DNA of 64,000 nucleotides from an uncultured Gammaproteobacteria bacterium. GTDB taxonomy: Bacteria; Patescibacteriota; Patescibacteriia; UBA9570; XYC2-FULL-38-9. Shown one piece after another: positions 1 through 58,444 of the stretch. How positions within the stretch are numbered: the stretch's first letter is position 1; each line of letters opens with the position of its first letter. The notes under the pieces were generated by a model, which saw only the letters and a list, made by a program, of their open reading frames with translations, searched no databases and was not told the DNA's origin. The translations under genes were made by a program, and so were the position numbers. The DNA is taken from positions 186,115 to 250,114 of the forward strand of contig CAYFNF010000001.1 in the NCBI GenBank assembly GCA_964344485.1. The letters run 5' to 3'.

Positions 1-729
1 GATTACCCGCTGGGGCTGCAATTGGTCACTGATGAAGAGATCGGGGGATTTGATGGCACAGGGTATCAGGTGGAGAAAGGTGTGCGCTCAGAGTTTGTTA
101 TTGCGGTTGAAGCCACGAATTTTGATATCGTAAATAAAGCAAAAGGAATTCTATGGGCTAAGGTTTCTGCAACAGGGAAAACCGGCCATGGAGCGCATCC
201 GTGGAATGGTGAGAATGCTATTTGGAAGATGCACAGTTTCTTACAGGCGCTACAGAAGAATTATCCGGTTCCGAAAAAGGAACAATGGGCGACTACGGTT
301 AATCTCTGTGACATAGGCACAAGCAACCATGCATATAACAAGATTCCTGACGACTGTATGGTCGGTTTGGATGTCCGTTTTATTCCCGAAGACACTAAGA
401 CGATCCTGCCGAGTATAAAGAAGTTACTGCCAAAAGGTTCCACACTCGAGGTTATTACAAACGAACCCGCGTTGTTAGTTGACAAAGACAATGATCATAT
501 TACACTGTTGCGGAACGCTGGACGGAGTGTCTTGAAAAAGAGCATGAAATTACGTGGAGCTCAAGGATCATCTGATGCACGACACTTTACTAAAGTGAAC
601 TGCCCAGGGATTGAGTTCGGGCCAGTTGGCGCTGGAATCGGTAGCGACAAGGAGTGGGTCAGTATTTCAAGCTTAGAACAGTTCTACTATTTACTAGCCG
701 AGTATCTCACGGCGTTACATACTAAATAA
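1..729 (+). CDS. M20-family metallopeptidase (ArgE/DapE-like), C-terminal part; 5' end lies outside the window
   Basis: The reading frame is open from base 1 with no stop (DYPLGLQLVTDEE...). It carries the M20 motif GKTGHGAHPWNGENAI and a typical C-terminal dimerisation/catalytic region. Confidence 0.7.
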   Translation, partial: DYPLGLQLVTDEEIGGFDGTGYQVEKGVRSEFVIAVEATNFDIVNKAKGILWAKVSATGKTGHGAHPWNGENAIWKMHSFLQALQKNYPVPKKEQWATTVNLCDIGTSNHAYNKIPDDCMVGLDVRFIPEDTKTILPSIKKLLPKGSTLEVITNEPALLVDKDNDHITLLRNAGRSVLKKSMKLRGAQGSSDARHFTKVNCPGIEFGPVGAGIGSDKEWVSISSLEQFYYLLAEYLTALHTK

Positions 730-747
730 CCTATTTAAATTAACAAC

Positions 748-1509
748 ATGGCAAAAAAAGAGATTAAACAGCGCAAAGATTTACGCATTCTACTTGTTCA
801 GATGCGTGGTGATGAAACTAAGCAGCATGAGATGGACTGTTTATTACGATACGGACATCTTGAGCCTGAGCAATTAATCTCTTATGATGCGTTAACTGAT
901 TCGGTGACCAATGACATTATCGAGGGTATGGACGCGGTGATTGTTGGGGGCGCAAACGAATTTCGAGTGTCGCACAAGGACTTTCATCAACTAGAAGAAG
1001 TAGAGGAGTTGGTTCGACACTGTACAGAGAAGAAAATTCCATTACTTGGCATTTGTTACGGAGCACATGTGATTGCAGAGGCGCTCGGTGGAACCGTGGA
1101 GTACACCCCGGATCGTAAAGAAGTGTCTAATCATGTCATGACCTGCATGCCAGCAGCTACGGATGACGAATTGCTGTATGACATGCCAAAGAAATTTAAA
1201 GCAAACTGTGGACGAACCGACAATATTATCAGTATTCCTGAGCATATGATTCACTTGGTGAAGTCTGAATTATCTGAATACCATATCTTCCGTGTTCCTG
1301 AGGCGCCAGTTTATGCAGTCCAGTTTCACGCAGAGTTGTGTAAGAAAGATGAGTGGACGCGTATGGACTTTGCTCATGCACATGGTGGGTACTTTAAGGA
1401 CAATGAAGACTTGCAGAATCAGAAAGATAAGATTGTAAAGACTCCTGAGGCAACGAGTTTAATAGAGAAATTTGTTGATCGAATAGTGCTTCCAGCTGTG
1501 AATTCATAG
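748..1509 (+). CDS. Class I glutamine amidotransferase-like protein (COG0518/GuaA-N-like), paralog 1
   Basis: N-terminus has LRILLVQMRGD. The Cys nucleophile sits in LLGICYGAHVIAEALGG and the His in VQFHAEL. Length is ~250 aa. Confidence 0.75.
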   Translation: MAKKEIKQRKDLRILLVQMRGDETKQHEMDCLLRYGHLEPEQLISYDALTDSVTNDIIEGMDAVIVGGANEFRVSHKDFHQLEEVEELVRHCTEKKIPLLGICYGAHVIAEALGGTVEYTPDRKEVSNHVMTCMPAATDDELLYDMPKKFKANCGRTDNIISIPEHMIHLVKSELSEYHIFRVPEAPVYAVQFHAELCKKDEWTRMDFAHAHGGYFKDNEDLQNQKDKIVKTPEATSLIEKFVDRIVLPAVNS

Positions 1510-1744
1510 CCTGCGCATCGTTTCTACTAGACCCATTAGTAGATTTTTCCACATTTTTTCGAAAAACCCTTGACTTATGACGATCATTATTATAGAATTT
1601 TGCAAACGTTAAATAACGTACAAACGTAATGAACTCAGTGACACATACAATACAGAACTGTTTCGAGCTAATTATTAGCCTGATTGTCCTTATTCGTAAG
1701 GGTGGGTTTTTGAGTGCTAGGTAAACGTATTTACACATTACTCA

Positions 1745-1770
1745 AAAGCCCGCCACTCGGCGGGTTTTTT
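1745..1770 (+). terminator. Rho-independent terminator
   Basis: Hairpin gcccgcc-actc-ggcgggt followed by tttttt. Confidence 0.6.
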
Positions 1771-2049
1771 CATTACGTGATTGAGCCTCTCGCAGTACTC
1801 GTTCGGACTATAAACCCGGCTTGCGCCGGGCCAACCGTCCTTCACGAGCACTGCTGCGGCTCTCATGAAATGAATAACCTCACTGTACATGTAGAAATAC
1901 GTCTACAGTGGCACATTGAAAAGTGATTGATGTCAGATACTCTTGTCGATCTGGCGGTTCGTAGGAGGAGAGCGAGCCGCCGGACTGGCAAGAGTATCCT
2001 TCCCCAAGATGGGGAGTAACAGAACCGCGCTGCTGTGAAAAGGAGAGAC

Positions 2050-3351
2050 ATGAAGCGGATTCTGATCGACGCGGTCCAAGAGGATTGGCCGCACCTGCGA
2101 GATGTCGACGCGATCGAAGCCTACTGGAATCGACCGCTGATGTTCGGAGAAGACTGCGTGGTGGTGGTCCACGCGAGCCAGGAGGACGAAGAACTGCAGC
2201 AGCTGCTGCACGACTACGGAACCATGGGCATCGGGCCCGCCGAAGTCATCTACGTCACGCCGCGAGGCAGAAGCTTCTACCAGGACATCCTGGCTGACAC
2301 CGACGCCATGGCGCGGATTCGCGCTCTGATGGCCGAAGGCGCCAAGCTGGACCTGTTCTGTGCTTCGCTCGAGGCGATCAAGTTCGTGGAAGCCGCTGGC
2401 TTCAAGTGGGACACCGACACGCTCAACCCTACCCCGGATCTGTACGCCCTACTGGCCAACAAGGCCGCGATGCGCGAGATGCTGGTGGAGGCCGGACTTC
2501 ACACCCTGGTACCGCCGCACGTGCTCGTGCGAACCGAAGCCGACCTGCGACAGTGGGTCACCTACTTCGGAGAGAACGGTGAAGGCGACGGAGTCTGTGT
2601 GAAGCGCCCGGACGGCGCGAGCTCGGAAGGGCAGGTGTTCCTGCGCAAGGGCGATGCGCCCGACGAGTTCCTCCGTACCCACTTCGATCCAGAGCTCCGC
2701 ATCATCGTGGAGCCCGCGTACGAGCACATCCCGTTCTCCGTGGTCTACGACCTCACCGGAAGCGAGGCTCGACTCGCGTACGGTTCCCTGCAGTGGCAGG
2801 GGCGTCACACCCGGCTCGGTGATCGCATCACCATGAGGCACCTGGTCGACAAGGACCTGGATCACCGCGCGAACATGGTGGGGTCCACCGGAATGGACCT
2901 GGGACCGCTGGCATGGCGCCAGATCGAGAGCGCGGCTGTCGCGTACGAGCCGGTCATGGGCCGGATCTACGAGATGGGCTACCGCAGCCAGATCTGTGCC
3001 GACATGCTCGGCGTGAACCCCATGATGGCCCTCGGGTCGGAGTTCAACCCCCGTCGTGCGCACAGCAACTTCCCGGCCGCTGTCCAAGCAGCACTGGAGT
3101 CCCGCTTCGGTGGGGAGATCGTGGTCCTGGCGACCAACGTCGAAGTACACCCTTCGGTGAACTCGTACTCCGCTGCTCGTTCTCGCGTGTCGCACCTGTG
3201 CGACGGAACCTCGCCCTCGGGCGTGCTGTTCTACCACACCCCCATCCTCCCCATCATGCCCAAGTGCGGGCTGATCTGCTGCGGACGCAGCTTCGAGGAG
3301 GTGCGGGAGCACTGCGAGACGGCTGAGGCCGAACTGCAAGCTGCCGCGTGA
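2050..3351 (+). CDS. ATP-grasp superfamily enzyme (carboxylate-amine ligase-like), high-GC foreign-looking gene
   Basis: GC is about 60-65% versus ~40% in the flanks. An SD (AAGGAGAG) lies 8 nt before the ATG at 2050. ATP-grasp-like blocks include NKAAMREMLVEAGLHTLVPP, VCVKRPDGASSEGQV, IVEPAYEHIPFSVVY and GVNPMMALGSEFNPR. The antisense ORF 2449..3339 is a GC artefact. Confidence 0.6.
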   Translation: MKRILIDAVQEDWPHLRDVDAIEAYWNRPLMFGEDCVVVVHASQEDEELQQLLHDYGTMGIGPAEVIYVTPRGRSFYQDILADTDAMARIRALMAEGAKLDLFCASLEAIKFVEAAGFKWDTDTLNPTPDLYALLANKAAMREMLVEAGLHTLVPPHVLVRTEADLRQWVTYFGENGEGDGVCVKRPDGASSEGQVFLRKGDAPDEFLRTHFDPELRIIVEPAYEHIPFSVVYDLTGSEARLAYGSLQWQGRHTRLGDRITMRHLVDKDLDHRANMVGSTGMDLGPLAWRQIESAAVAYEPVMGRIYEMGYRSQICADMLGVNPMMALGSEFNPRRAHSNFPAAVQAALESRFGGEIVVLATNVEVHPSVNSYSAARSRVSHLCDGTSPSGVLFYHTPILPIMPKCGLICCGRSFEEVREHCETAEAELQAAA

Positions 3352-3510
3352 GCGGCAACGGCGAAGCTGGGCGGGCCTACCGAAGCACCACTACAGGACA
3401 TCGCATCAACGACATCAGTCCTTCGGGGTGAGCACCACACTCGCCCCTCCCCATTTTTTTCAACAACCCCGCGTCTGAGCGGTTCATATAAACATGATAT
3501 AATAATCACT

Positions 3511-4278
3511 ATGCCCGAAATAGCATCAAAAAAAACACGCGATCAAGTGAAGATTCGAGTCATTCACTTTCGAAGCGATCCAGTCATACAAAAGATGGAG
3601 TTTGATAGTTTTGTACGTTTTACAAAATTACGACCAGAGCAGCTTGTTGTGCATAACGCATTAACCGACCCAGTAACTACTGACCTGATAGATGGATTCG
3701 ATGGATTACTCATCGCCGGCGGTGGAGATGTTCGTGTTACCGAGGAGCTACCGTTTTGGGAGCCGGTGCGAAAGTTGTTGCGCCATGCGTATGAAATTAA
3801 TTTTCCAACGCTTGGAGTCTGCTTAGGCATCCAGTTAGCAGCACAAGAGTTCGGTGGAAAGCTCACGAGTGACAAGAAGTACTTCGAAACCGGAACCTAT
3901 CCAATGTACTTAACAGACGCAGCAAAGAACGATCCGATGTATCAAGGAATTCCAGAGATATTTAATGGACAGATGGGGCATAATGATACAGTAATTGAAA
4001 TACCAGCAGAAGCTGTTCATCTCACCTATAGCGATAGGTCAAAATATCAAGCGTTCTGCTTTCCCGGGAAGAAGATGTACTTCACGCAGTATCATCCTGA
4101 GTTAGACGAGCACCAGTTGCGTGAGCGTCTGTATTATTATGAAGAGCATTACGCAGATAACAAAGAAGAGTTTCAAGCCATCCTGAACACACTGCAAGAC
4201 TCCACTGATGCGTCTCTCATACTAGAACGGTTTGTTGATGTGTTGGTGCTTGATTCTGAAGCAGTTTGCGGAATGTAG
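3511..4278 (+). CDS. Class I glutamine amidotransferase-like protein, paralog 2
   Basis: Shares the same architecture as 748..1509: IRVIHFRSD, FVRFTKLRPEQL, TLGVCLGIQLAAQEFGG and TQYHPEL. Confidence 0.75.
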   Translation: MPEIASKKTRDQVKIRVIHFRSDPVIQKMEFDSFVRFTKLRPEQLVVHNALTDPVTTDLIDGFDGLLIAGGGDVRVTEELPFWEPVRKLLRHAYEINFPTLGVCLGIQLAAQEFGGKLTSDKKYFETGTYPMYLTDAAKNDPMYQGIPEIFNGQMGHNDTVIEIPAEAVHLTYSDRSKYQAFCFPGKKMYFTQYHPELDEHQLRERLYYYEEHYADNKEEFQAILNTLQDSTDASLILERFVDVLVLDSEAVCGM

Positions 4279-4331: not shown

Positions 4332-5102
4332 ATGTCACAGCCAAAGAAACGGGAGGATGTACGGATTCTCCTTTTACAATTCCGAGAGGACCCATTTATT
4401 AAGAAGCAGGAGTTTGATCAATACGTACGGTTTACGAAACTTCGCGCAGATCAGATTGATGTCCTAGATGCATTAACAGAGACAGTTACAAATGACTGTG
4501 TCCATGGGTATAATGGAGTCATAGTGGGTGGAGTTGGACATATATTCATCAGCGACAACGCTCCGTTTCAAGAACCGGTACTCGAGTTAATTCGCTATTT
4601 ACTCGAACAGAACATTCCAACGCTCGGAATCTGTTTTGGCGCACAACTTGCTGCACTGGCGTTAGGCGGTACAGTAGAGCGAAAGCCAGAGATGTTTGAG
4701 TACGGAACGTATCAGATGTATTTAGAGGATGAAGCGAAGAACGATTTGATGTTCGACGGTGTACCATCTCCTTTTAATGGACAGATGGGGCATAAAGATT
4801 CTATTACTGAGCTACCTGAGGGTGCCGTGCGCTTAACGTATAGTGATGCATGTCCAAATCAAGCGTTTTACTTCCCCGGAAAGAAGTTTTATGTTGTGCA
4901 GTATCATCCGGAGCTAGATGAGAAAGGGCTAAAAGATCGTTTAGCGTATTATCGTGACCACTATGCTCGAGATGAGAAGCAATATCAAGAGCTGCGAGAC
5001 CGTATTACCGACTCTACTGACGCATCAAAGATTCTAGAGCGGTTTATCGACGTGCTCGTGCTTGACGAGCCAGCGCAACAGAGCGTAAAAGATCAGAAAT
5101 AA
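4332..5102 (+). CDS. Class I glutamine amidotransferase-like protein, paralog 3
   Basis: Carries VRILLLQFRED, YVRFTKLRADQ, TLGICFGAQLAALALGG and VQYHPEL. About 50% identical to paralog 2. The start is taken at ATG 4332; the upstream extension in the ORF track overlaps paralog 2. Confidence 0.7.
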   Translation: MSQPKKREDVRILLLQFREDPFIKKQEFDQYVRFTKLRADQIDVLDALTETVTNDCVHGYNGVIVGGVGHIFISDNAPFQEPVLELIRYLLEQNIPTLGICFGAQLAALALGGTVERKPEMFEYGTYQMYLEDEAKNDLMFDGVPSPFNGQMGHKDSITELPEGAVRLTYSDACPNQAFYFPGKKFYVVQYHPELDEKGLKDRLAYYRDHYARDEKQYQELRDRITDSTDASKILERFIDVLVLDEPAQQSVKDQK

Positions 5103-5447: not shown

Positions 5448-5468
5448 ACCCGGGAGTACCCGGTTTTT
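5448..5468 (+). terminator. Terminator-like hairpin
   Basis: Stem ccggg-agta-cccgg followed by ttttt. Confidence 0.4.
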
Positions 5469-5515
5469 GTGTATAAAAAAACGCGCTGTGGCTCAGCTCG
5501 CTGTAGAGCGAAGCG

Positions 5516-6058
5516 TCATGAACCCACGCGCGTGCGTGTGAACAGCAGATGCGAGTTGCCGGACCAGAGGCGCTGGTAGCGACCCATGGGTCGATCCATG
5601 GAGCAGTAGGAGTAGTGCTCGCGCAAGTGTCGACGACCGCCAGTTGGTGACATGACGTGGATCACTGGGAAGGAGGTCTGGATCTGACCGACCTTGCCAG
5701 CGTCGTACGGTCTGCTGTTGAACGGGGAACCGAGGGCGAGCACCCCAGGGTCGTCATCATCTTCGTCGTAGACCCGGGTGACCAGGTCCCATGCGATCAG
5801 CTCCCACATGTTCGCCGGTCGGAACCCCCTGAGCCCTGTTGAGATCAGGAGTTGCTCAATGGGGACAGAGCCTGCACATCCGTACGGGGTCTCGCGAACC
5901 CGTACCAGGAAGAAGTCGCCGGGCCGTCCTGGCTGCATCAAGATCTCTGCCATGTTCTCCGATGGCCGCAGTCGGCGTGGTAGTCTGGTCGTGCTGCCGA
6001 GGTCCAGACCGAACGGGATGTTCAGCCGGAGTATGACCGTAAGCAAGCTGCTTACCAT
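5516..6058 (-). CDS. Hypothetical protein (high-GC island gene 1)
   Basis: High-GC ORF. ATG at 6058 is preceded by a perfect SD (AGGAGG, 9 nt spacing). The longer ORF reaching 6124 would start at GTG without an SD. No family recognised. Confidence 0.5.
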   Translation of the reverse strand: MVSSLLTVILRLNIPFGLDLGSTTRLPRRLRPSENMAEILMQPGRPGDFFLVRVRETPYGCAGSVPIEQLLISTGLRGFRPANMWELIAWDLVTRVYDEDDDDPGVLALGSPFNSRPYDAGKVGQIQTSFPVIHVMSPTGGRRHLREHYSYCSMDRPMGRYQRLWSGNSHLLFTRTRVGS

Positions 6059-6074
6059 TTTGCTAATCCTCCTA

Positions 6075-6313
6075 AGAGGTGCTTCATTGCGAATGATGCA
6101 CCCATGAGTAGATCTTCGCCCCACTCATTCATGCACCATGTTGTAAAAAAACGAGCACAATGTTCGAAACCCTATTCACATTCTCGCGTCTGCTGAGGTG
6201 AAGAGGAGAACACTATGCTCGTGTTTCCAGCGTATGATACGACCGCTCGGTGTCGTTAGTAGTTTTTCTTCTATTTGCGGCTTCTTCTTACCATGAGATT
6301 GCATGATCGTCAA
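6075..6313 (-). promoter_or_regulatory. Promoter-like element plus structured attenuator-type 5' leader, copy 1
   Basis: Minus-strand reading: TTGACG, 17 nt, TAAGAA. Then an AACAC-GAGCAUA-GUGUU hairpin. Then a 12-bp stem ACGAGCAUAGUG/CAUUGUGCUCGU followed by UUUUUUU. About 70% identical to the copy at 7081..7295. Confidence 0.45.
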
Positions 6314-6364: not shown

Positions 6365-6435
6365 GCGGGATTAGTACAATGGTAGTACATCTGCTTCCCA
6401 AGCAGGAGACGCGAGTTCGATTCTCGTATCCCGCT
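6365..6435 (+). tRNA. tRNA-Gly (anticodon CCC)
   Basis: Full cloverleaf. Acceptor GCGGGAT/ATCCCGC, D-stem GTAC, anticodon arm TCTGC-TTCCCAA-GCAGG, T-arm GCGAG-TTCGATT-CTCGT. CCA is not encoded. Confidence 0.85.
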
Positions 6436-6468
6436 CAATCAATGAGACAATAAAAAAGCCGTGGTTGG

Positions 6469-7080
6469 TTACCAGGGCTGTTGCACTTCGGTCGCGTCCT
6501 TGTACGCCTGGTGCAGCTTGGTGAGCCATCCTTCGTCGCCGATTGACAGCGCGCAGAGCAGGACGATCACGATCAGCAGGATGCCCACTGGGAGCAGCAG
6601 GACCACGTCATTTCGCGGCTGACGGGATTGCGGTTGGCGCCACCCCATCACGCACCGCGCTTTCCGGTTTTCCACCATGGACGCGGCACCAGCCAGTAGA
6701 TCACCACCAGCAGGACCAGGGCCGGAAGCACGCGGTAGGTGTCGTTGGCGTGGGTCCACTCGGCCCGTGAGCGCGGTGAAGAGCGCGAAGTCGGTCTGGC
6801 GGATGACCCACCGGATCGCGCGCTTCTGGGCATCCAGCGTGTTGTAGGACGGCTGGTCGCGGAGGGCGCTGGTGCGAAGCATGTCCATGTGGTCCATCAG
6901 GACCACGCCGTTCACCCGCGCGTAGATGTGCACGCAGAGCACGAACAGCAGGACGCCCGCACAGGCTAGGGACTGGATGAACACGAACTCTGGGGAGCCG
7001 TGCACCACACAGTACGCCAGGTCCACGAACGCGCCGAACGCGAGGACGCGACTGAGGTATGCGAAGGTTCGCATGTTCAC
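6469..7080 (-). CDS. Hypothetical membrane protein (high-GC island gene 2)
   Basis: High-GC ORF with hydrophobic N-terminal helices (FAYLSRVLAFGAFVDLAYCVV, LACAGVLLFVLCV). Start is ambiguous between GTG 7080 and ATG 7074. The overlapping antisense ORFs are GC artefacts. Confidence 0.5.
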   Translation of the reverse strand: MNMRTFAYLSRVLAFGAFVDLAYCVVHGSPEFVFIQSLACAGVLLFVLCVHIYARVNGVVLMDHMDMLRTSALRDQPSYNTLDAQKRAIRWVIRQTDFALFTALTGRVDPRQRHLPRASGPGPAGGDLLAGAASMVENRKARCVMGWRQPQSRQPRNDVVLLLPVGILLIVIVLLCALSIGDEGWLTKLHQAYKDATEVQQPW

Positions 7081-7295
7081 CTCGTGTTGGAGTTGATTCC
7101 GTGCTAACGAAATGTGCAGTTTCGCAAAACACGGGCATGCTGTTCAAAACCCTTCTCACTTCGGTAGCGAAGTAGAAGGAGAACACCATACCCGTGTTTC
7201 CGAGCGCTTCTGTTACGGCGGCTCAGGTCACCGTTGTGTTGATAGCACTGAATTGTCGAACAGCTGTTTGTACCATAGTGAACGCTCTTTGTCAA
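7081..7295 (-). promoter_or_regulatory. Promoter-like element plus structured attenuator-type 5' leader, copy 2
   Basis: Minus-strand reading: TTGACA, 17 nt, TACAAA. Then an AACAC-GGGUAUG-GUGUU hairpin. Then a stem ACACGGGUAUGGUG/CAGCAUGCCCGUGU followed by UUUU. Compensatory changes relative to copy 1 preserve the pairing. Confidence 0.45.
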
Positions 7296-7741: not shown

Positions 7742-7800
7742 GTATCCATTGACAGACCTATTCTATTCCTGCATCATAACAGTTCTGTTTGGAGACGCGC

Positions 7801-8169
7801 ATGATAGTGTTGAGAGGGAGTCGAGAGACAGCAACCGCAGCGTTCATCGCTCTGGGATGGAAGGTCCGGGGGAGTCCCCCTGAAGAGCTACCTGATGGTA
7901 CGACACTGCATCCCGTGCACAGCAACGGTGAGGCAGCAGTGGGCAAGGTCTGCATCACGAGTGGACGGCCCCAGACCGCGCAGCGCTTCTCGCTTCCGCA
8001 AGGAGCCGCGATCTACGTGCTCAAGGGGGTGCTCAAGCTGAATGGAGAGACGTACACCGCCGGTACCCTGATCTGGATCCCGGCATCTGGCGCGTTCAAC
8101 GTCGACACCACCCGTGAGTGCACACTCGGGGTGTTCTACCCCGCACTGCCCGGACTGACCGGACCCTGA
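7801..8169 (+). CDS. Cupin-fold-like small protein (high-GC)
   Basis: High-GC ORF. GGAG lies 7 nt before ATG 7801. Beta-rich and cupin-like: GAAIYVLKGVLKLNGETYTAGTLIWIPASGAFNV. Confidence 0.45.
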   Translation: MIVLRGSRETATAAFIALGWKVRGSPPEELPDGTTLHPVHSNGEAAVGKVCITSGRPQTAQRFSLPQGAAIYVLKGVLKLNGETYTAGTLIWIPASGAFNVDTTRECTLGVFYPALPGLTGP

Positions 8170-8440
8170 GCCATGCTGCTGTTGATGCACCGTGTTCCGT
8201 GACATGATCGGACCGCGGATTTTTTTATTCTAATGCCGCTACTCGCTTAACCCTACGTGATACCAGTCTCGCTTCCTCCGCTTCGGCTTTACATGACTGT
8301 TCTCAATTCCTGTAACGCACGCTTCGCGTGCTTTCCTTTGCGTGTTGATTTTTCGTTATCCGTGTCTTTTGCGCAGCCTTCAGGCTTCGGTGCGCTGCGA
8401 ATAGTATCACTTCGGGTGTCGCTTGTATCGCTTCTTGAAT

Positions 8441-8471
8441 AAAAAAACGGCGATGTCTTACGAGATCATCG
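8441..8471 (-). terminator. Terminator for the minus-strand gene ending at 8492
   Basis: On the minus strand, hairpin CGATG-atctcgtaaga-CATCG then CCGUUUUUUU, immediately after the stop. Confidence 0.4.
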
Positions 8472-8491
8472 TCCGCGTGAGCATGTGCGCA

Positions 8492-8980
8492 TCAGTGGAC
8501 TGCGTCGTCTGGTCCGGCGGTGGTACCGGTCAGGATCGAGCCCTCAGGCCCGATTCGATGGCGGAACTCGGTTCCGGGTGATGCAGAGTCCACGATCGCT
8601 TCCATGGGATCGTCAGCAGGCCACGGGCGAGTCGCTTGGTCTCCGCGTTCGCGAGCCAGCTGGATCTCCAGCGGTGGCTCGGGTGGCAGATGGTTCACGA
8701 TCGCGCTCGTGAGGCGGCTCACCAGTTGCGCATACTGCGGCTGTGGAAGTCGGCTCTGGAAGAAGGCCTGCAGTGCAGCGGCCTCGGGTACGCTGTGAGC
8801 TTCGGCGATCTGCCGCACGGTCCCACCCGGGAGCGTTACGACGATGTTCACCGCCGCGTGACAGCACGGGCAGAGTTGCACGTCCAGCGTCACCTGAGCG
8901 AGCCACTCTCGTGTGTAGTACTCCGCGCCTTGTTCGTAGCACAGCACATGCTCAAGGTTCACCTCGTCACAAGTTGCCAA
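8492..8980 (-). CDS. Hypothetical Cys/His-rich protein (possible zinc-binding), high-GC
   Basis: Probable TTG start at 8980 with SD AAGGAG 8 nt upstream. Carries HVLCYEQ...CPCCH. The coding region is high GC, but its promoter region (8981-9070) is AT-rich. Confidence 0.45.
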   Translation of the reverse strand: MATCDEVNLEHVLCYEQGAEYYTREWLAQVTLDVQLCPCCHAAVNIVVTLPGGTVRQIAEAHSVPEAAALQAFFQSRLPQPQYAQLVSRLTSAIVNHLPPEPPLEIQLARERGDQATRPWPADDPMEAIVDSASPGTEFRHRIGPEGSILTGTTAGPDDAVH

Positions 8981-9137
8981 TAGAATTGCTCCTTTGGACA
9001 GGGTTTCGTGAGTGAGGATAGCCCTACTTGTAATATATATTAGATAATATTGCAAGTGTGTATAACGCAAACAGTGCCCGTGCGCTTTAATTTAAACGTG
9101 GTATACTGATAAGGAGTTAAGTAATAAAGACAAAACC

Positions 9138-10949
9138 ATGAGAAAAACGATCCTTGTTCTCAGTACCGGGTTGTTTCTTTTATTGATGCAACCTGTGAGC
9201 GCTGAGACCGCACCGATCACTCTAGACGGCGACATATCAGACTGGGATGACGCTGGTATAGAGAGCCTTATTACCGACACTACCGGAGAGGTAGTTGGGA
9301 CTGATTGGTGCTATAACAACGCTACTTCCCAGTGGGAGGAGAAAGCTGAGAAAGATTGCGGCTCATTATTTGTGAATCAAGAGTTGTTTTTAGACATTGG
9401 AGACTTTCGAATGACTCATGATTCTACATTGATGTACGTTGCGCTGGAGTCAGCCGCGCCAATTATGGGCGTGAAGGTTCTAGATCCAACGAGTTTGGAT
9501 TACGGTAAATATCTACCGTTTGGATATCCATTAGATTGGGATGGTTCCGGCCCACCAGAAAAGTTTATAGCAGGAGCGCCTAGAGCGTTTGACCACTCTA
9601 TGGTGATCTGCTTTGACTTAAATCAGGATGGAATTGATGACCTATTTGCGAGAACGAATTTTCAATGGGAAGAAGGTATGGTTGGCACTGAAACCGGAGA
9701 AGGCATGACTATCATGCACTATCTGTATCAAGATGATGGTGATGGAGAGTACACGCCAAGTACTGATACACTCTTAGAGGAAGAAGAAGACAATCCTGTC
9801 GGTGTTTCATCTGATTCCTTTGATGCGAGTGAAGGGTTGTCAGCAGTCACTGAAGTTTCGGACGAGCTAGAGAGCTTTGAACTTCTAATTGGCGAAACAG
9901 TGAATGTGCATGTAGAGATGTGGTCATCCCTTGCTGACGAGACTGAGCCAGTGGAGTACACCTTCACAGAGTATATACCTGAGAAGATCACCGGGTTAAA
10001 AATAAACGACCCACTACCGCATCGACTCAGCTATGTGAACCTTACATGGGACGCAGATGATTCAGCTGCTACGTATGACATTCAACTATTGAAAAAGAAC
10101 GGTACGGTTTCACAGAGCCTAACATCAGCTACAAATAGTAAAAAGATAAAGAAGAAGTATCTTGTCGCGAATAGCGCAAGAAAAGTGAAGGTCCGAGGCG
10201 TCACCGGCGCTGGAACTCCTGGAGAGTACTCTGATACTAAGACGTTCTATGTTCCACCGGCAATGCCTCGCAATCTTCAAGCAAAGCGCGTCGGTCCAAC
10301 TACTGCAGTACTTGATTGGGTTGCACCAAAGAGGCACGCAAAGCTCAAACACTATAGAGTTATTCTATACAAAGGGAAGAAGGCCGTTCGAAGGTTGAAT
10401 GTGAAAAAGACGCAAAAGTTGGTTCGAAACTTAGATCCATCCAGCAAGTACTCCTTTAAAGTACGAACTGTGCGAAGAACTGGAGTATCAAGTAGGTGGT
10501 CTAAGAAGAAATCATTTACCACTATGGGGCCAGTACAGTATGTCAAGATCGAAGACATGACTCGAGTGGCAGATGATGACCTGAAACCTGGCGCGGATAT
10601 TGATGCATTGGTACTCAATCAAGAAGACGGGACCAAGTATTACGCAGACATGATCCCTGATCGGTACATTCCGATCTCCAGTGGAGATGATGACCCAGCA
10701 GAGATGCTCGGTATGCCAGACTATTCAGTAGATACAGACTGGGGGTACACTTCTTTGGGTGGAGTTGGCGGATATGCAGTGATCAAGCTAGAGCAAGCCA
10801 TGGATAAGGACTCTAAGAATCTAGTCATTCGTGAACTGCGCACAGTCTCTAAAGTCGGGGATGCTTATAAAGTCTACTTTTCTGAATCAGAGCTAGGCCC
10901 ATGGACATTCATTGGTCGCCACTCTGGCCGCGCAATCATTGGGTTATAA
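9138..10949 (+). CDS. Secreted protein with fibronectin-III-like/Ig-like domains and a Lys/Arg-rich region
   Basis: Signal peptide MRKTILVLSTGLFLLLMQPVSA|ETAP. Fn3-like segments include PRNLQAKRVGPTTAVLDWVAP. Confidence 0.6.
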   Translation: MRKTILVLSTGLFLLLMQPVSAETAPITLDGDISDWDDAGIESLITDTTGEVVGTDWCYNNATSQWEEKAEKDCGSLFVNQELFLDIGDFRMTHDSTLMYVALESAAPIMGVKVLDPTSLDYGKYLPFGYPLDWDGSGPPEKFIAGAPRAFDHSMVICFDLNQDGIDDLFARTNFQWEEGMVGTETGEGMTIMHYLYQDDGDGEYTPSTDTLLEEEEDNPVGVSSDSFDASEGLSAVTEVSDELESFELLIGETVNVHVEMWSSLADETEPVEYTFTEYIPEKITGLKINDPLPHRLSYVNLTWDADDSAATYDIQLLKKNGTVSQSLTSATNSKKIKKKYLVANSARKVKVRGVTGAGTPGEYSDTKTFYVPPAMPRNLQAKRVGPTTAVLDWVAPKRHAKLKHYRVILYKGKKAVRRLNVKKTQKLVRNLDPSSKYSFKVRTVRRTGVSSRWSKKKSFTTMGPVQYVKIEDMTRVADDDLKPGADIDALVLNQEDGTKYYADMIPDRYIPISSGDDDPAEMLGMPDYSVDTDWGYTSLGGVGGYAVIKLEQAMDKDSKNLVIRELRTVSKVGDAYKVYFSESELGPWTFIGRHSGRAIIGL

Positions 10950-20241: not shown

Positions 20242-21609
20242 ATGAATAGCGAAACTATTTCCAACCAGTATCAGGAATATGTAAGGAAGATGTTTTCTTC
20301 TGTTTCTTCACAAGAGCAAGCACGTGTACTTGAGCCGTTTGTTTTAACTGGAAACGGAGATTTAGAGTATCCTGTTTTTACTGTACCTACATCTTTACAA
20401 CCAGTGTTCTTTCCAAAGAAACAGATCGACGAGATCGCGCGAAAGACTGAGATATTGGATGAGATGCTTATTGAACTTTTTGATGTTATTCAGAAAGATG
20501 CTGCAGTACGGGCATTTCTGCACGTATCTGATTTTGAGTTGCAATTACTACAACAGCGACCAGAGTGTGAAGCACCGTTACCGTTCTGGAGGATAGACAT
20601 GAATCTTGGGCCCGAAGGTGGTAAGTGCGTTGAATTCAATACTGATGCAGCACGCGGGCGTGGAATTGCAGAACAGTTGGAGTGGGATTTTGCCAACACA
20701 CAGCTATTCCAAGAGTTCATGCAGCAGCATCCGGAGATCACGCCACCAGAGCAGGTGGACCTAATGACGGAGATATATGATCGCGCAGCCGAGCAGTTTG
20801 AGCGGTTCTCTGGATTATCAGCAAATCAGATGAAGGTCGGAGTTCTCTGCTGGGAAGACTACGGCTTTATGATTGAGATAGAACTGTATAGAGACTTCTG
20901 GAGAGAGCGTGGTATTGAAGCAGATATTATCGACCCGCGATCCGTGGAGTACTCCAGCGGCAAGGTTACGGCGAACGGAAAAGAGTATAACTTTTTTTCA
21001 CGCTGGGTGGATTTAGACAAGCTCATAGAGTATCAATGTACACCGATCCTTCAAGCGTATCTTGATGGTGCTATTTCGATATACCCAACCATCGCTTCAG
21101 GAGTTGTTGGCAAGAAAGCAGTGTTTGAGTTGTTCGTTGATCCTGCGTATAAAGCGCTCATCGATCCTGAGAAGTGGGAATACGTTTCATCTCTCATCGC
21201 TTGGACGCGTCGATTGCGCCCTGGTGAAACAGAGCTGCCATCAGGAGAGAAGAGCGATTGTGTTGCATTCACAAAAGCGCATCGCGAAGAGCTAGTAGTT
21301 AAAGCCTCTGTAGGAACTGAGGCAAAAGAGGTGGTGATTGGAGCAGACGTGAGTCAAGCAAAGTGGGAGCAGCAAGTAGACAACGCAGCACAAAAAGGTA
21401 CATGGGTAGTACAAGAATACGTGCAATGGAATAGTCAGGATTTCTTAACGTATGATGGTCAGCAATGTAGCACTGAACAAAGAAACTACGATTGTTTGCC
21501 GTGCTTGACTCACGGAACATACTCGTCCAGTTTTACTCGATCTGCTGTAGGAAATATTCTAAATTTTTCTGCAGGTGCAACTATCGCACCACAATACTAT
21601 ATTCAGTAA
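20242..21609 (+). CDS. ATP-grasp-like amidoligase (possibly circularly permuted ATP-grasp / GSP-synthetase-like family)
   Basis: 455 aa. C-terminal blocks WVVQEYVQ and NILNFSAGAT resemble ATP-grasp Mg/ATP-binding motifs. It sits next to a transglutaminase-like gene, the classic partner. Family assignment is tentative. Confidence 0.4.
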   Translation: MNSETISNQYQEYVRKMFSSVSSQEQARVLEPFVLTGNGDLEYPVFTVPTSLQPVFFPKKQIDEIARKTEILDEMLIELFDVIQKDAAVRAFLHVSDFELQLLQQRPECEAPLPFWRIDMNLGPEGGKCVEFNTDAARGRGIAEQLEWDFANTQLFQEFMQQHPEITPPEQVDLMTEIYDRAAEQFERFSGLSANQMKVGVLCWEDYGFMIEIELYRDFWRERGIEADIIDPRSVEYSSGKVTANGKEYNFFSRWVDLDKLIEYQCTPILQAYLDGAISIYPTIASGVVGKKAVFELFVDPAYKALIDPEKWEYVSSLIAWTRRLRPGETELPSGEKSDCVAFTKAHREELVVKASVGTEAKEVVIGADVSQAKWEQQVDNAAQKGTWVVQEYVQWNSQDFLTYDGQQCSTEQRNYDCLPCLTHGTYSSSFTRSAVGNILNFSAGATIAPQYYIQ

Positions 21610-41438: not shown

Positions 41439-44400
41439 ATGCCTGTATCCAAAAGAAAACAACGTAATGCTACTGATGGATCTTCGTATACAGGAGTAGA
41501 GAAGCTGATTTCTGCTTCTCAGCACCAATCAAGCGGTGCACCAACGCAGTATAAGAAAGCGTTGCTTTCTGAATTGCGAACAGAACAATTTAATAACACG
41601 CATATGGCAAAAAATAAGAAAACCGCGGCTTCGAAAAAAGCTGCAGTGAGTGCACAGGATTCTAACACGGATTCTGACCGCGCTCGTAAGAAGCAGTTGT
41701 TTAGCTTCCCAATTTTTATTCCCGCAGTTGTCGGTGTACTCGTGCTTGGCATTATCATTACTTCTTTCGTCGTATTTCGTTCAGATGACCCACAGCCTGG
41801 CGGCGAGGTTACAGGCCCACTGGTGATACATCAGAATGTCAGTGATGAAGATATTGAAAATGCGTTTTCTCTGTCCGCGTTACAGGAAGACGCATCAGGC
41901 GTTAATCCTAAAACATCATTTCAGTTGATCTCCACTGTGCAGACCTCAGTGGATCAGATCAAGGATTCATTATCGTTCTCTCCATCTGTTGCATACGCTG
42001 TCGAAGCAACAGATAGCAACACGTATCGTGTTACTCCAGAGGCTCCACTCGAAGCCGGAAGTATGGTTGCTGCGACCATGAACGTTCAGTATCAGGGCGA
42101 GGGCAACACCATGATGCAGCGCAATTTCTCTTGGTCATATCAAGTGCAAGAAACCTTTCAAGTGCTATCAACGCTGCCACGTAATGCAGTAACCAGCGTT
42201 CCAGTGGATACGAGTATCGAGATTGAGTTTAGTCATACTGATGTGCAGGATATTGAGGAGAATTTCACTATCACTCCAGAAGTCTCTGGTCGATTCGAGA
42301 TGCATCGAAAGAGCGCTGTGTTCATTCCTGACGCTCCGCTGAAGAAAGGTACTGTATATACCGTGACACTGAAGAAAGAAACGCATCTCTCGTCTCCAGA
42401 AACTCCGCTGCAAGAAGACTTGGTATTTATGTTTGAGACCTCATCAAAGGATACAGATACTTCATACACCCCAGGGATTACGCAAATCCAACAGGTATCG
42501 AATGAAACTTCTACTCTAGAGAAGCCAGTATTTATCGTGTCTGGGTGGGATTTGGAAGATATAGAAGAGACTACATTAGCTTTCTATGAATTTTCGGATC
42601 AAGGGCAGTTTGAAGCAGCGTTTGATAATTACATTGCAGTTCCACAATGGGCATCCTACTCTCAGTCACACTGGAGCTATTCAACAGAAGGGCTGCAGTT
42701 ACACTCTTCTACGTCAGTTCCGCTGCAGGATATCGGTAATTACTGGCAGTTTGCAATTGAAGCACCGCAGCCGTTAGAGCAGGGTTGGTATTTAGTAGAA
42801 GTACTTGGCCGCAATGATGAGAATTACTACGCATTACTGCAGGTCGAGGATATTACGGCGTATGTGACTACTTCTGAAAAAGACATGGTCGTGTGGGCGC
42901 ATGATGCAACTACGCAAGATCCACTCGTGGGTGCAGAAGTCAAGTTGTCAGACGGTACATCTGTAGGTACTACTGACGCAAGCGGTTTATTGCAGGTCGA
43001 TACACCGGATGCACTGACGTTAGACGATAACACTTCCACACATGCAGTGACTATCGTCTATGGCGCGAGTACGTTATTTGTTCCGTTGTCAGGAAACGCT
43101 CAGGGATATAGTCGATACAAGCAGTATGGTAATTCAGCAACATCTGATCCATATTGGTCTTATATCTATTTAGATCAACCGTTCTATCTCCCTGATGCGA
43201 CCATGAATATCTGGGGGCTGCTTTCTTCCCGTGATGCCAGCGCGGTCTCTTCTGCAAGTATAGAGATACGAGATGGATATGATTTCGATGATCCAGAAAG
43301 CATCGTGTATAAAAAGACCCTGTCACCGGGTACGTACGGTACATTCGAGCATACAGTTGATCTCCCTAATCTACTTCCAGATTACTATACATTGACACTA
43401 ACCGTAGACGGTGAAGTGATTACCTATAAATCATTTGATATCCTTACTTACCAGAAGCCAGCATATACGTTGGATGTTGACCCAGCAAATATCGGAGTGA
43501 TCAGTGGCGAGGATGTAACTCATACAGTGACCGCATCGTTCTTTGATGGGACCCCAGTGACTTCTGTTGATATTGAACTTGATGGACAGAATCTCACTAC
43601 AAATGACCAGGGTGTGGTGGAGTATACGCACGCGTATAGTGGAGAAGGTTCTTACTATGATGAACGCATAGATACACAATGGCTCCATGCACGACCAGCG
43701 TTATCTGAAGAAGGGAACATATCCGCTGAAGCTCGAGTTCGCGTTTTCCCATCATCACAATTGATAGATGTTGATTCTACTGTTAAGGAGAGCACTGCAA
43801 CTGTGAATGGAACCCTCTACGAATTGGACTTAGCAGGATTTAATGATGGGACGTTTGACTTCTTTGAAGATCCGTACGGTTCGACTGTTGCAAACCATGA
43901 GCTCTCTGCTACCGTGACGCGCCGATGGTACAAGAAGAACCAGACTGGAACTCGGTATGATGCTATCGATAAAAAAGTCGTTCCAGTATATGAATATGAG
44001 TATAAGAATAAAGAGATTCTATCAACTACCGTGACTTCTGACTCGAACGGTACGTTTAACTTTGACTTTGATATGCTTGATGGGTCGTCATACGATGTTG
44101 CTGTGCGCTCAACCGATAGTCAAGGACGTACTATACGAGAGAACGCGTATGCGTCTGTTGGGTACGGCGCAACCTGGAGTGACGGCGATCTCTTTTCTAT
44201 CGGATATACTAGTGAAGGAGGCGAAGGTGAGGCGTACATGTCAGTGAAGAGGGATTTCTCACTCGGAGAGACGGTTTCTGTTGGCATGTATCGTAACGAT
44301 GATCTATTAGCTACTGAAGAGTATCCAGCATTCCTCTTTGTTCAAGCACAGAACGGCATCATGGATGTTGACACCTCCCAGGAAGCAACGTATGAATTCC

Positions 44401-50424: not shown

Positions 50425-50715
50425 AGCCCACGTATTGTACCGCAGTTTCATTTGAGATTCAATGTATTCAACCACAGGTTTTCCCCGATTTTTTACACAT
50501 TTTGACATACATTAGTGATTATCCTGTAGTTCAGCACAATACCAGCGCGGATATTGACAAATTCGCGTTTTATTGTAGGGTAAAGGTGTTCTCCAGCCGG
50601 AGAGCCTTTGTTTTCGGGATACTCCTGAGCAGTGATGTAATCCATGTTCTGGAATATCTCGAACTAGGCAGATCCGACGCAGTGAGCACACTGCGTGTTG
50701 AACGAGGAGGACAGG

Positions 50716-50931
50716 ATGAGCAGATGCTCACAGGACGGAGGAGTGCACGGAACCGCGCGCTACATGCCCGAGACCCCGGCCGAGGCGTTTGCGCTCGGTC
50801 TGACGCTGGTGCTCAGCGACATGGCCAAGCCGTTCCGCGGCATCGGTCGTCGGGCCAAGCGCTTCGCGAGCCTCACGCGTCTTCCGCTGGCGCTCTGGCG
50901 CTGCCGCGTCACCCGCACTCACCGTTCGTGA
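50716..50931 (+). CDS. Small hypothetical protein in high-GC mini-cassette
   Basis: 71-aa ORF with a strong SD (GAGGAGG) 7 nt upstream. ~65% GC against ~40% flanks. Arg-rich C-terminus. Confidence 0.3.
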   Translation: MSRCSQDGGVHGTARYMPETPAEAFALGLTLVLSDMAKPFRGIGRRAKRFASLTRLPLALWRCRVTRTHRS

Positions 50932-50939
50932 TCGCAACC

Positions 50940-50975
50940 CGCGTCCCCTGACGCGGACCACTGCGATTTTTTTTA
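50940..50975 (+). terminator. Terminator-like hairpin ending the high-GC cassette
   Basis: Hairpin ccgcgtc-ccct-gacgcgg, then accactgcga and tttttttt. Confidence 0.4.
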
Positions 50976-51051
50976 CCCACGCTTCATATCTCTTGACCTT
51001 TTACATCCACAATGCTATGATCTTTCAGGCATTCTAATTACAACTATATAC

Positions 51052-51125
51052 GGGACGTTAGCTCAGCCTGGTAGAGCAACTGCCTTTTAAGCAGATGGTC
51101 GGAGGTTCGAATCCTCCACGTCCCA
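51052..51125 (+). tRNA. tRNA-Lys (anticodon TTT)
   Basis: Acceptor GGGACGT/ACGTCCC. D-arm GCTC-AGCCTGGTA-GAGC. Anticodon loop CTTTTAA. T-arm GGAGG-TTCGAAT-CCTCC. Confidence 0.85.
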
Positions 51126-51204
51126 CTCTCAGAGCGTATCCGCGCTTTTTTGTTTTTCTCTTTGTCGTACGGGAGGCTTTTCAAAACAGGTAAAATATAC
51201 TATA

Positions 51205-57382: not shown

Positions 57383-57427
57383 CATAGTAAACAGATAGTG
57401 TTTGAATAAATTTTACAGGCATTGACC

Positions 57428-58434: not shown

Positions 58435-58444
58435 TTCCGCGTTA

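Follow-up and report, generated by a model that had tools for sequence, protein, structure and literature searches.

The 64,000-nucleotide window analysed here (the whole stretch studied, from contig CAYFNF010000001.1) is a segment of a bacterial chromosome with a guanine-plus-cytosine (GC) content of 44% that holds EF-G, EF-Tu, a ribosomal protein operon, SecY and DnaB. Its SecY is 77% identical to that of a Candidatus Kerfeldbacteria metagenome-assembled genome and 55-62% identical to those of Falkow-, Magasanik- and Uhrbacteria; therefore, these identities place the host in the Patescibacteria, or candidate phyla radiation (CPR), where it appears to be Kerfeldbacteria-like. Near the start of the window, a 433-aa open reading frame (ORF) of high GC content lies between genes for class-I glutamine amidotransferases (GATases) of about 44% GC and downstream of an M20 metallopeptidase gene, an arrangement that a first-pass annotation had described correctly (Table 1). 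The ORF spans positions 2035 to 3351 and its likely start is an ATG preceded at 5-13 nt by the Shine-Dalgarno (SD) sequence AAAGGAGAG, so this gene does have its own SD, as had been claimed. It encodes a ligase of the ATP-grasp type and is hereafter called the ligase gene.

Table 1. Features of the ligase locus, in positions of the window (UTR, untranslated region; GC3, GC content at third codon positions)
Feature	Position	Strand	Details
M20 (DapE/ArgE/CPG2-like) metallopeptidase gene, 3' two-thirds	22-729	+	5' end beyond the window; host composition; Pfam M20_dimer 7e-17 and Peptidase_M20; NCBIfam ArgE/DapE; PDB 2rb7 5e-33, DapE, CPG2
GATa (GATase-1), class-I GATase fold	748-1509	+	PF00117 6.9e-16; triad GICYG ... 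HAE intact; GC3 0.43; nearest PDB protein GMP synthase subunit A
Sigma-70-like promoter P1, TTGACT-17-TAGAAT	1570-1598	+	10 of 12 consensus positions
Leader ORF, 31 codons	1629-1724	+	MNSVTHTIQNCFELIISLIVLIRKGGFLSAR, then stop; Ile/Leu/Val-rich run followed by Gly-Gly codons
Predicted antiterminator	1700-1754	+	leader ORF 3' end GGGUGGGUUUUUGAGUG pairs with terminator 5' arm CUCAAAAGCCCGCC
Intrinsic (attenuator) terminator, GCCCGCC-ACUC-GGCGGGU + U6	1748-1770	+	-13.9 kcal/mol; 23 nt past the leader stop
Ligase 5' UTR	1775-2049	+	GC 0.53; weak P2-like motif; SD AAAGGAGAG at 2037-2045
Long near-perfect hairpin in the 5' UTR, 26 bp	1936-1998	+	base ACUCUUGUC / GGCAAGAGU; -42.9 kcal/mol
ATP-grasp carboxylate-amine ligase, 433 aa	2050-3351	+	GC 0.64; GC3 0.82; family profile, AlphaFold2 model, Foldseek
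3' hairpin GGGGUGAG-N7-CUCGCCCC, 6-nt spacer, U7	3425-3460	+	-16.4 kcal/mol; z = -4.2; probable terminator
GATb-1 (GATase-2), class-I GATase fold	3511-4278	+	PF00117 2.6e-18; triad GVCLG ... HPE intact; host composition; PDB matches GMP synthase subunit A and standalone GATases
GATb-2 (GATase-3), lineage-specific tandem duplicate of GATb-1	4332-5102	+	PF00117 5e-21; triad GICFG ... HPE; start taken as the ATG after the ORF-finder TTG at 4266, from the N-termini of the other two GATases

The GC content forms a plateau of 0.60-0.66 from about 1775 to about 3450, non-coding flanks included. The ligase ORF has a GC content of 0.643, with 0.68, 0.43 and 0.82 at the first, second and third codon positions (GC1, GC2 and GC3), against 0.43-0.45 overall and a GC3 of 0.41-0.46 in the M20 and GATase genes (GC1/2/3 about 0.56/0.32/0.43). 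The earlier statement that the ligase is compositionally alien to its neighbours thus agrees with the data (0.64 versus 0.44), and the pattern by codon position is that of a real coding region whose codon usage is entirely different. A 296-aa antisense ORF was rejected as a shadow ORF on the same codon-position evidence. An assembly chimera was also rejected. L089, an independent European Nucleotide Archive (ENA) assembly of the same strain from PRJEB17505 (labels of this type designate the family and strain contigs fetched for this study), spans the 5' GC junction with 1 mismatch in 2056 nt, which lies in GATase-1 and not in or near the junction, and both equivalent junctions of a relative recur in two Joint Genome Institute (JGI) samples. 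Since the junctions are reproduced independently, the GC mosaic is real. The short-read contig L089 starts and stops inside GC-rich sequence, which implies that the ENA assembly broke at both GC-rich flanks. It contains the complete M20 gene (363 aa) and covers the region upstream of the window for 549 nt only; its positions 1-95 (549 to 455 nt before the window start) are the 3' end of another gene of 64% GC and a terminator, located just upstream of M20.

On its own, the 433-aa protein has no match in Pfam, NCBIfam or a single-sequence search of the Protein Data Bank (PDB). A word-indexed search of 5.8 billion clusters returned only 2 relatives (47% and 42% identity), and a word-indexed homologue search with a 50-sequence profile added almost none. 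An exhaustive search of 1.84 billion representatives with a hidden Markov model (HMM) profile recovered 108 relatives, 25 of them below 1e-30. No relative was found in a scan of a genome collection (GTDB representatives) or among viral contigs, and a metagenome scan returned only a duplicate of L084. The family could nevertheless be placed where the single protein could not. Twelve of the 50 aligned members match the Pfam family ATP-grasp_3 (PF02655). The family profile finds 69 PDB sequences at E <= 1, and all the 60 listed are ATP-grasp enzymes, including 8ynd, an "ATP-grasp peptide ligase" (2.7e-19), PGM1 (4.6e-16) and a BesA-type ligase (5e-9); PurD, carbamoyl-phosphate synthetase (CPS, E = 7e-7) and Ddl rank behind these peptide ligases. 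An AlphaFold2 (AF2) model based on a 3-sequence alignment was unusable (predicted local distance difference test, pLDDT, of 51), and the model based on the 50-sequence alignment reached a pLDDT of 96.9 and a predicted template modelling (TM) score, pTM, of 0.94. Foldseek retrieved 621 PDB matches to the latter at E <= 0.001, and the 50 best that were listed are all ATP-grasp enzymes; 8ynd is the top match (E = 4.6e-22, TM 0.70) and BesA has the highest TM score among those 50 (0.73). The TM scores of 8ynd, BesA, PGM1 and LdmS, an L-amino-acid ligase from S. aureus, lie between 0.65 and 0.73, and those of PurK, PurT and biotin carboxylase are around 0.5, compared with 0.70-0.73 for the closest peptide ligases. 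Six residues (K138, R142, D318, E331, N333 and R335) are invariant in the 50-sequence alignment and align with the NMK..FRR and D..E.NAR motifs of 8ynd, and the nucleotide- and Mg-binding residues expected in an ATP-grasp enzyme (the Lys, the Asp/Glu/Asn Mg ligands and the catalytic Arg) are present.

The structure model and the family profile together assign the protein to the ATP-grasp superfamily, with a predicted three-domain fold. The ATP-grasp identity given in the first-pass annotation is thus borne out, although not by a Pfam or NCBIfam match of the protein itself, and the subfamily, for which an HMM search had been recommended, is approached through the family profile and the structure model, which place the PGM1/BesA peptide ligases nearest. 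The closest group is the PGM1/BesA/L-amino-acid-ligase type, matched over the full length at about 15% identity. The Pfam domains derived from PGM1, PF18604 (PreAtp-grasp) and PF18105 (PGM1_C), are not matched by the window protein and are each matched by 1 of the 50 relatives. The ligase fits no characterised ATP-grasp subfamily or Pfam model, and its family is small. In the proposed chemistry, ATP would activate a carboxylate as an acyl-phosphate and the amine of an amino acid or a short peptide would attack it. PGM1 (Streptomyces cirratus, PDB 3wvq/3wvr) and the Streptomyces protein 8ynd, for which no publication was found, have the same full-length three-domain architecture (TM 0.65-0.72) and share the Lys/Arg and Asp/Glu/Asn/Arg motifs, but they come from actinomycetes and not from a CPR host, and the identity is about 15%. 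Contrary to PGM1, the CPR family has no amidinotransferase, polyketide synthase (PKS) or nonribosomal peptide synthetase (NRPS) neighbours, and M20, GATase and GCS2-like genes occur instead. BesA, the gamma-glutamyl ligase for L-propargylglycine (PDB 8yi6), and the structurally related LdmS (SAOUHSC_02373), an L-Asp-L-Met ligase (PDB 7r8p; PMC9486568), are standalone ligases that make one small-molecule amide bond; their identity to the window protein is low and their gene neighbourhoods are different.

The genomic contexts of ten further family members were fetched and nine of them have flanking genes. The tenth, L095, is a distant member on a 1.9-kb contig of uniformly 65% GC. The nine flanked contexts are CPR-like (type IV pilus or type IV secretion system genes, S6-SSB-S18, S12-S7-EF-G, UvrD-NDK), so that all ten contexts with flanking genes, including the window, are of CPR type. 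In 9/9 of the other flanked lineages the ligase adjoins at least one of the M20, GATase and GCS2-like genes (Table 2), and these conserved neighbourhoods sustain the functional link between ligase, GATases and M20 peptidase that had been supposed from the window alone. The GCS2-like partner is a distant relative of GCS2/YbdK ligases, and its GCS2 match is weak (E = 1e-12 at best).

Table 2. Gene order around the ligase and third-position GC content of the ligase and of host-composition neighbours
Context	Gene order	Ligase GC3	Host GC3	Group
L003	GATase - GCS2-like - ligase	0.72	0.26	high-GC clade
L085	ligase - M20	0.76	0.37	high-GC clade
L084	GCS2-like - ligase - M20	0.80	0.38	high-GC clade
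Window	M20 - GATa - ligase - GATb-1 - GATb-2	0.82	0.42	high-GC clade
L001	ligase - GCS2 - M20	0.84	0.44	high-GC clade
L086	GCS2-like - GATase - ligase - GATase	0.88	0.52	high-GC clade
L094	GCS2-like - ligase - M20 (two M20 genes)	0.70	about 0.37	sister clade
L087	ligase - GATase - 396-aa ORF	0.37	0.28	near host composition
L090	ligase - 429-aa ORF - M20	0.50	0.41	near host composition
L091	ligase - M20	0.36	0.31	near host composition

The comparison with L086 bears on the history of the locus. GATase-1 is 52% identical to the upstream GATase of L086, GATase-2 and GATase-3 are respectively 45% and 43% identical to its downstream GATase, and the cross-pairs only reach 31-37%; the two ligases are 40% identical. 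This positional orthology indicates that the order GATa - ligase - GATb is ancestral. The three GATases had been regarded as simple tandem paralogues. Yet, GATase-1 falls into another orthologous group than GATase-2 and GATase-3, and only the latter pair, with 52% identity between its members, is a local duplication. The ligase belongs to a conserved CPR module as a resident gene; it was not recently inserted.

The first-pass annotation had interpreted the locus differently, as a chimera created when a foreign high-GC ATP-grasp gene was recently transferred precisely between tandem low-GC GATase paralogues. Several observations could be explained in this way: the sharp GC step from 0.44 to 0.64 (GC3 of 0.82 versus 0.42), the SD, UTR and terminator that the segment itself carries, the proximity of other GC-rich islands of the window to tRNA genes, and the horizontal gene transfer (HGT) and genomic islands documented in Patescibacteria (PMC12455944). 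Nevertheless, L086 repeats the order of the window with orthologous GATases around a ligase of 40% identity, M20, GATase and/or GCS2-like partners adjoin the ligase in nine other lineages, and the attenuator found upstream of the ligase (see below) has host composition and is conserved throughout the family. No integrase or transposase (Pfam, NCBIfam) was found in the first 9 kb of the window (1-9 kb), no PHROG hit was obtained, the ligase locus has no flanking direct repeats or att-like sites other than a 22-nt promoter-proximal motif, and no donor-like sequence (no protein above 50% identity) exists among the 5.8 billion clusters, the 1.84 billion representatives, the GTDB representatives or the viral contigs. 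Genomic islands resemble this case in that deviant GC is limited to particular genes, but they differ from it, as mobility signatures and a donor are missing here, the synteny is kept and the composition follows that of the host. An integron cassette or attC-like element was rejected because there is no integrase and there are no shared border motifs. The first-pass annotation had taken orthologues of matching composition at the same position in low-GC relatives as evidence against a transfer; the shared position is observed, and matching composition only in the divergent L087, L090 and L091. A recent insertion is largely refuted by the synteny and we consider it very improbable.

The conserved module consists of a GCS2/YbdK-type ligase, the ATP-grasp ligase, one to three GATases similar to GuaA subunit A, and a DapE/ArgE-like M20 enzyme. 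One possibility for their joint action, close to the CarA/CarB analogy of the first-pass annotation, is an amidoligase of the CarA/CarB or GatD/MurT type, in which the GATases would channel ammonia from glutamine to an ATP-grasp enzyme that amidates a carboxylate. In those systems too, a class-I GATase gene stands beside the gene of an ATP-dependent enzyme that forms acyl-phosphates. In addition, the Cys-His-Glu triad is kept in the translations of all three GATases, these are closest to the GMP synthase subunit A, a dedicated ammonia donor, and a GATase adjoins the ligase in the window, L003, L086 and L087. Yet the ATP-grasp enzyme does not belong to the carboxylase/CPS type: its nearest relatives lack a GATase partner and use amines of amino acids or peptides, and the match to CPS is far weaker than that to the peptide ligases (7e-7 versus 2.7e-19), which makes the CarA/CarB analogy a weak one. 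Moreover, the GATase adjacency is not family-wide, as L084, L085, L090, L091 and L094 have M20 but no GATase within the contig, and the GATases also weakly match the gamma-glutamyl hydrolase family Peptidase_C26 (Pfam). An ammonia-channelling amidoligase thus seems rather unlikely.

Alternatively, the two ATP-dependent ligases, of GCS2 and ATP-grasp types, would build a small amide-linked product (for instance a dipeptide, a tripeptide or a conjugate of an amino acid), the GATases would supply ammonia for amidation or hydrolyse a gamma-glutamyl-type amide, and the M20 enzyme would remove an acyl or aminoacyl group. The logic of such a module would be similar to that of GshA and GshB, which synthesize glutathione in two steps: a GCS-family ligase is paired with an ATP-grasp ligase, and here M20 and gamma-glutamyl-hydrolase-type hydrolases are nearby. 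This is an analogy only; neither the ATP-grasp ligase nor the GCS2-like partner is orthologous to the Gsh enzymes and no thiol chemistry is indicated. The analysis demonstrates the fold and family of the ligase, its conserved neighbourhood, the layout and conservation of the attenuator described below and the GC pattern, and the substrate, the contribution of each partner and the cause of the GC enrichment are inferred. Elsewhere in the window, a 455-aa ORF located right after EF-G (20242-21609) matches the preATP-grasp domain of glutathionylspermidine synthase (PF03738); it adds a further candidate for an amide ligase to a genome in which biosynthesis is scant.

The intergenic region between GATase-1 and the ligase contains what appears to be a transcription attenuator. 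The hairpin reported by the first-pass annotation at 1745-1770 was recovered at 1748-1770 (a second scan also detected it, reported on the opposite strand), but its attribution to the upstream gene does not hold: it has its own promoter, P1, and its own leader ORF, and it travels with the ligase in 11/11 loci. In the minimum free energy (MFE) structure of the untranslated leader RNA, the terminator's 5' arm base-pairs with the 3' end of the leader ORF, which excludes the terminator. This antiterminator duplex has an energy of -22.7 kcal/mol, against -9.8 +/- 2.3 in shuffled sequences (z = -5.5), and it also appeared as inverted repeat I2 in a repeat scan. The same layout precedes the ligase at all 11 distinct loci, including the distant L095. 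The leader ORFs have 25-42 codons and are composed of 24-50% Ile/Leu/Val, in runs such as IIII, LIVLI and IVIIL; TTGAC/TTTACA...TAxxxT promoters, read by eye from the sequence, precede them at other loci. The terminators (-7 to -19 kcal/mol) begin 15-27 nt past the leader stop at all loci, and the Gly-rich leader codons imitate the terminator 3' arm across loci. The antiterminator complementarity is significant in 11/11 of the units that precede the ligase (z = -2.6 to -7.9), and the antiterminator is the MFE structure in 4 loci. Just 70-110 nt separate the terminator from the ligase start codon in L090 and L091. Second leader/terminator units precede the partner ligase genes, namely GCS2 in L001 (3306-3362, MKSRQNFVVVVELASLWR, then stop) and the 396-aa ORF in L087 (10283-10372, MTQGNYKQNLFVFVLFLVLGSPRRGFSIV, then stop); therefore, both ligases may be controlled by separate attenuators. 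These two units lack the Gly-Gly pair, and the antiterminator is not significant in one of them (L001b). A 22-nt motif that may be a shared promoter-upstream element occurs in two copies of 82% identity: TCCACATTTTTTCGAAAAACCC at 1548-1569 immediately precedes the leader promoter, and TCCCCATTTTTTTCAACAACCC at 3448-3469 immediately precedes the GATb-1 promoter region.

This anatomy is that of ribosome-mediated transcription attenuation; the architecture and its conservation were computed from the sequences, and the read-through response is a prediction. Transcription from P1 would enter the leader ORF. A ribosome that reaches the leader stop codon would mask the antiterminator strand, so that the terminator forms; a ribosome stalled on the hydrophobic codons, by scarce charged tRNA or other translation stress, would instead let the antiterminator form, and RNA polymerase would then cross the 280-nt UTR with its 26-bp hairpin into the ligase gene. 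The module would thus be induced when the charging of Ile/Leu/Val-tRNA, or translation, is compromised, although both the direction and the signal of this regulation are deduced from the layout. The ilvL, leuL and trpL attenuators have the same promoter, short ORF with a codon run, mutually exclusive hairpins and antiterminator at the 3' end of the ORF, and the leader peptides of the ilv and leu operons are rich in Ile, Leu and Val. Unlike them, the present attenuator controls a ligase gene and not a biosynthetic operon, is found in CPR hosts and, in the closest clade, lies ahead of a long UTR that contains a hairpin of 20-27 bp. No Rfam family matches it above threshold (Trp_leader scores 20 bits against a gathering threshold of 41 and Leu_leader 19 against 50), and the sub-threshold matches include the Trp, Phe and Leu leaders. 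We found no report of leader-peptide attenuators in CPR in the literature.

The small ORF could also be read as a ribosomal precursor peptide with a double-glycine-type motif and a C-terminal core of 5-7 residues, to be aminoacylated by the ligase. PGM1, which acts in pheganomycin synthesis and together with another peptide ligase is the nearest relative of the window protein, adds a non-proteinogenic amino acid to a small ribosomal core peptide (PMC8939145). Every locus has a small ORF that ends in R/K-x-G-G followed by 4-9 variable residues, and a C39-type peptidase is encoded about 6 kb away in L087. Nevertheless, the Gly-Gly codons are accounted for by RNA pairing (z down to -7.9) to the terminator arm, which is rich in G+C, the spacing of 15-27 nt between ORF and terminator is the geometry of an attenuator, and the Ile/Leu/Val content of 24-50% resembles that of ilv/leu leaders. 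Furthermore, no protease or exporter is conserved in the cluster, and the second units upstream of the partner ligase genes lack the Gly-Gly pair. A precursor peptide is thus quite improbable, and attenuation remains our preferred interpretation of this ORF.

Between the attenuator and the ligase, the structured leader noticed earlier corresponds to the long hairpin at 1936-1998 (z = -9.2; 0/200 shuffles as stable). Homologous hairpins of 20-27 bp occur at matching relative positions in L001, L003, L084, L085, L086 and L087, and the z-scores of the seven hairpins range from -6.8 to -10. Their base is partly conserved (ACUCUUGyC/GrCAAGAGU), their interiors differ yet stay paired, and the loop size is highly variable. 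The conservation of the pairing despite varying interiors and loops favors a structure of RNA or single-stranded nucleic acid; the reading of 1936-1998 as a DNA operator was rejected, as the spacing of the arms varies from about 10 to more than 100 nt among loci while the pairing is kept. The hairpin could bind a protein, act as a stabiliser or be cleaved by RNase III. In the seven closest loci, the terminator is succeeded by a motif of the type CTTTACAA, possibly a second promoter (P2), to judge from its sequence. It is weak in the window (TTCACG at 1841-1846 ... CATGAA at 1864-1869) and was not flagged there by the consensus scan; CTTTACAA...TAAGnT is clearer, as read from the sequence, in L084, L087, L003 and L085. 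At the other end, the ligase unit probably terminates at the hairpin at 3425-3460, where the GC-rich segment also has its 3' border. The arrangement of hairpin, spacer and U-run is repeated in L084 (about 9560-9605) and L086 (about 4205-4265), with a C-rich spacer of 6-8 nt in the three lineages, which is atypical for an intrinsic terminator.

If the ligase was not recently inserted, its composition requires another explanation. The GATase, M20 and leader ORFs are always at host composition and the GCS2-like partner is always GC-rich (GC3 0.67-0.85), as are the 3' UTRs of the ligase (0.56-0.64). In a neighbor-joining (NJ) tree, the six high-GC copies, whose proteins are mutually only 35-47% identical, form a clade together with L087 that is nested among CPR members of host composition. 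Across the six lineages, ligase GC3 follows host GC3 (r = 0.98, Spearman 1.0), and a constant odds ratio of 6.5, a single parameter with a coefficient of variation (CV) of 0.11, fits them all; the partner genes give 5.3-6.7. A fit that assumes partial amelioration from a common donor can be satisfied only by an impossible donor GC3 of 1.53. No polymorphism could be compared in the GC-rich genes, as the replicate assemblies do not differ. In L003, tandem runs of the heptamers ATCACTT and ATCACCT (about 4620-4640, 4770-4795 and 7020-7050) and a duplicated segment of about 90 nt fill the AT-rich intergenic DNA beside the GC-rich ligase and GCS2-like genes.

One scenario keeps the module ancestral and regards the composition as the signature of a donor: the ligase and the GCS2-like partner would have been repeatedly replaced in situ from an unsampled high-GC lineage with the same cluster. 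It is congruent with the GC richness of all three codon positions and of the UTRs, as expected from a donor mutational signature, with a star-like ligase tree (identities of 32-47%), with the distant L095 on its 65% GC contig, and with the observation that detected HGT into Patescibacteria comes mostly from other Patescibacteria (PMC12455944). Yet, there are seven high-GC recipient contexts (the six of the closest clade and L094) and zero donors for the clade in 1.84 billion representatives, every replacement would need a recombination breakpoint between the attenuator terminator and the UTR, ligase GC3 follows that of the recipient, with an amelioration fit that places donor GC3 above 1, and L087 has host composition and the same UTR hairpin although it branches within the clade. 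Repeated replacement is therefore rather unlikely. The conserved synteny, the lack of a donor and the host-tracking GC3 make recent HGT a poor explanation and, because ligase composition tracks the host, there is a weak lean towards a bias acting in situ: over a long time, a locus-specific bias would have favoured GC in these transcription units, and recent import would not be the source of the enrichment. In its more explicit form, a heritable process with an odds ratio of about 6.5 at third positions would act on defined CPR transcription units and keep their genes GC-rich down to 35-47% protein identity; we advance this version tentatively, as a possibility that is more doubtful than not. 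The affected set would comprise the ATP-grasp ligase, the GCS2-like partner and possibly other GC-rich islands (SDR, cupin and orphan ORFs, see below). Unusually strong localised GC-biased gene conversion (gBGC), which has been proposed in bacteria (Lassalle et al. 2015, PMC4450053), targeted A:T-to-G:C mutagenesis and selection for GC-rich, nuclease-resistant mRNAs are candidate processes.

The ligase is not the only GC-rich island. Six more, of 57-66% GC, lie in the window at 5451-6100, 6401-7200, 7751-8300, 8351-9000, 50601-51050 and 57451-58450, and three of these abut tRNA genes: tRNA-Gly(ccc) at 6365-6436, tRNA-Lys(ttt) at 51052-51126 and tRNA-Asn(gtt) at 58599-58674. Searches of Pfam, NCBIfam, PHROG and PADLOC returned no family for the island ORFs at 5516-6124 (-), 6469-7080 (-), 7789-8169 (+) and 8492-9070 (-). 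A divergent short-chain dehydrogenase (SDR) with a GC3 of 0.80 is encoded at 57422-58411 (+), and none of the 5.8 billion clusters contains a relative of it at E < 1e-10. Because PHROG and PADLOC gave no hits, the idea that the islands carry phage or defence genes was rejected. Near the ligase cluster of L084 there is a GC-rich cupin gene (3198-3560, minus strand; GC3 0.83), and the GC-rich ORF at 7789-8169 in the window (126 aa) has a weak match to Cupin_7 (E = 0.028), with no BLAST similarity between the two. Outside the islands, the window also contains a 1748-aa alpha-2-macroglobulin-like ORF (41439-46685; A2M, bait-region and Big_5 domains), in a CPR genome.

Taken together, the data are best accounted for by a CPR-specific, starvation-inducible module for small-peptide or amide ligation that carries a real compositional anomaly, an account that we regard as reasonably probable. 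Several points weigh against it. The ligase itself remains below every Pfam and NCBIfam threshold, and its substrate class is an extrapolation, given that its identity to any solved ligase is only about 15%. A tblastn search found no GCS2-like gene within the window, and only the 3' end of the GC-rich gene upstream of M20 is visible on L089. The leader ORFs have no obvious SD, as read from the sequence, and the UTR of 190-330 nt and the P2-like motif between attenuator and ligase in the high-GC clade imply that the ligase could be transcribed independently of the leader unit. It is also puzzling that a CPR cell, itself auxotrophic, should respond to a shortage of branched-chain amino acids by inducing a ligase that consumes ATP. 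Finally, the case for a GC bias draws on six lineages, on contigs of limited length and on an NJ tree, and to our knowledge no bacterial process shifts GC3 by +0.4; gBGC in bacteria likewise makes the composition of particular genes deviate locally, but its effect is reportedly modest, much below the shift of about +0.4 in GC3 found here.

What seems new here is an ATP-grasp subfamily with its module, a conserved CPR attenuator and a persistent GC enrichment. The analysis provides a fold and a probable reaction class for an unannotated family found mainly in CPR-type contexts, and delineates a module of five components (two ligases, GATases and an M20 hydrolase) that is conserved in bacteria about whose metabolism and interactions with hosts little is known. 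A small-peptide or amide product induced by starvation would, if real, be a candidate symbiont-host effector or a salvage route. For Patescibacteria, the leader unit is apparently the first well-supported example of classical attenuation by a leader peptide, and its family-wide presence offers a handle on how CPR bacteria sense translation or amino-acid status. The locus also challenges the routine equation of a GC-deviant gene with recent horizontal transfer, and a locus-specific force that elevates GC, if it exists, would have consequences for the detection of HGT, for binning and for models of how base composition evolves.

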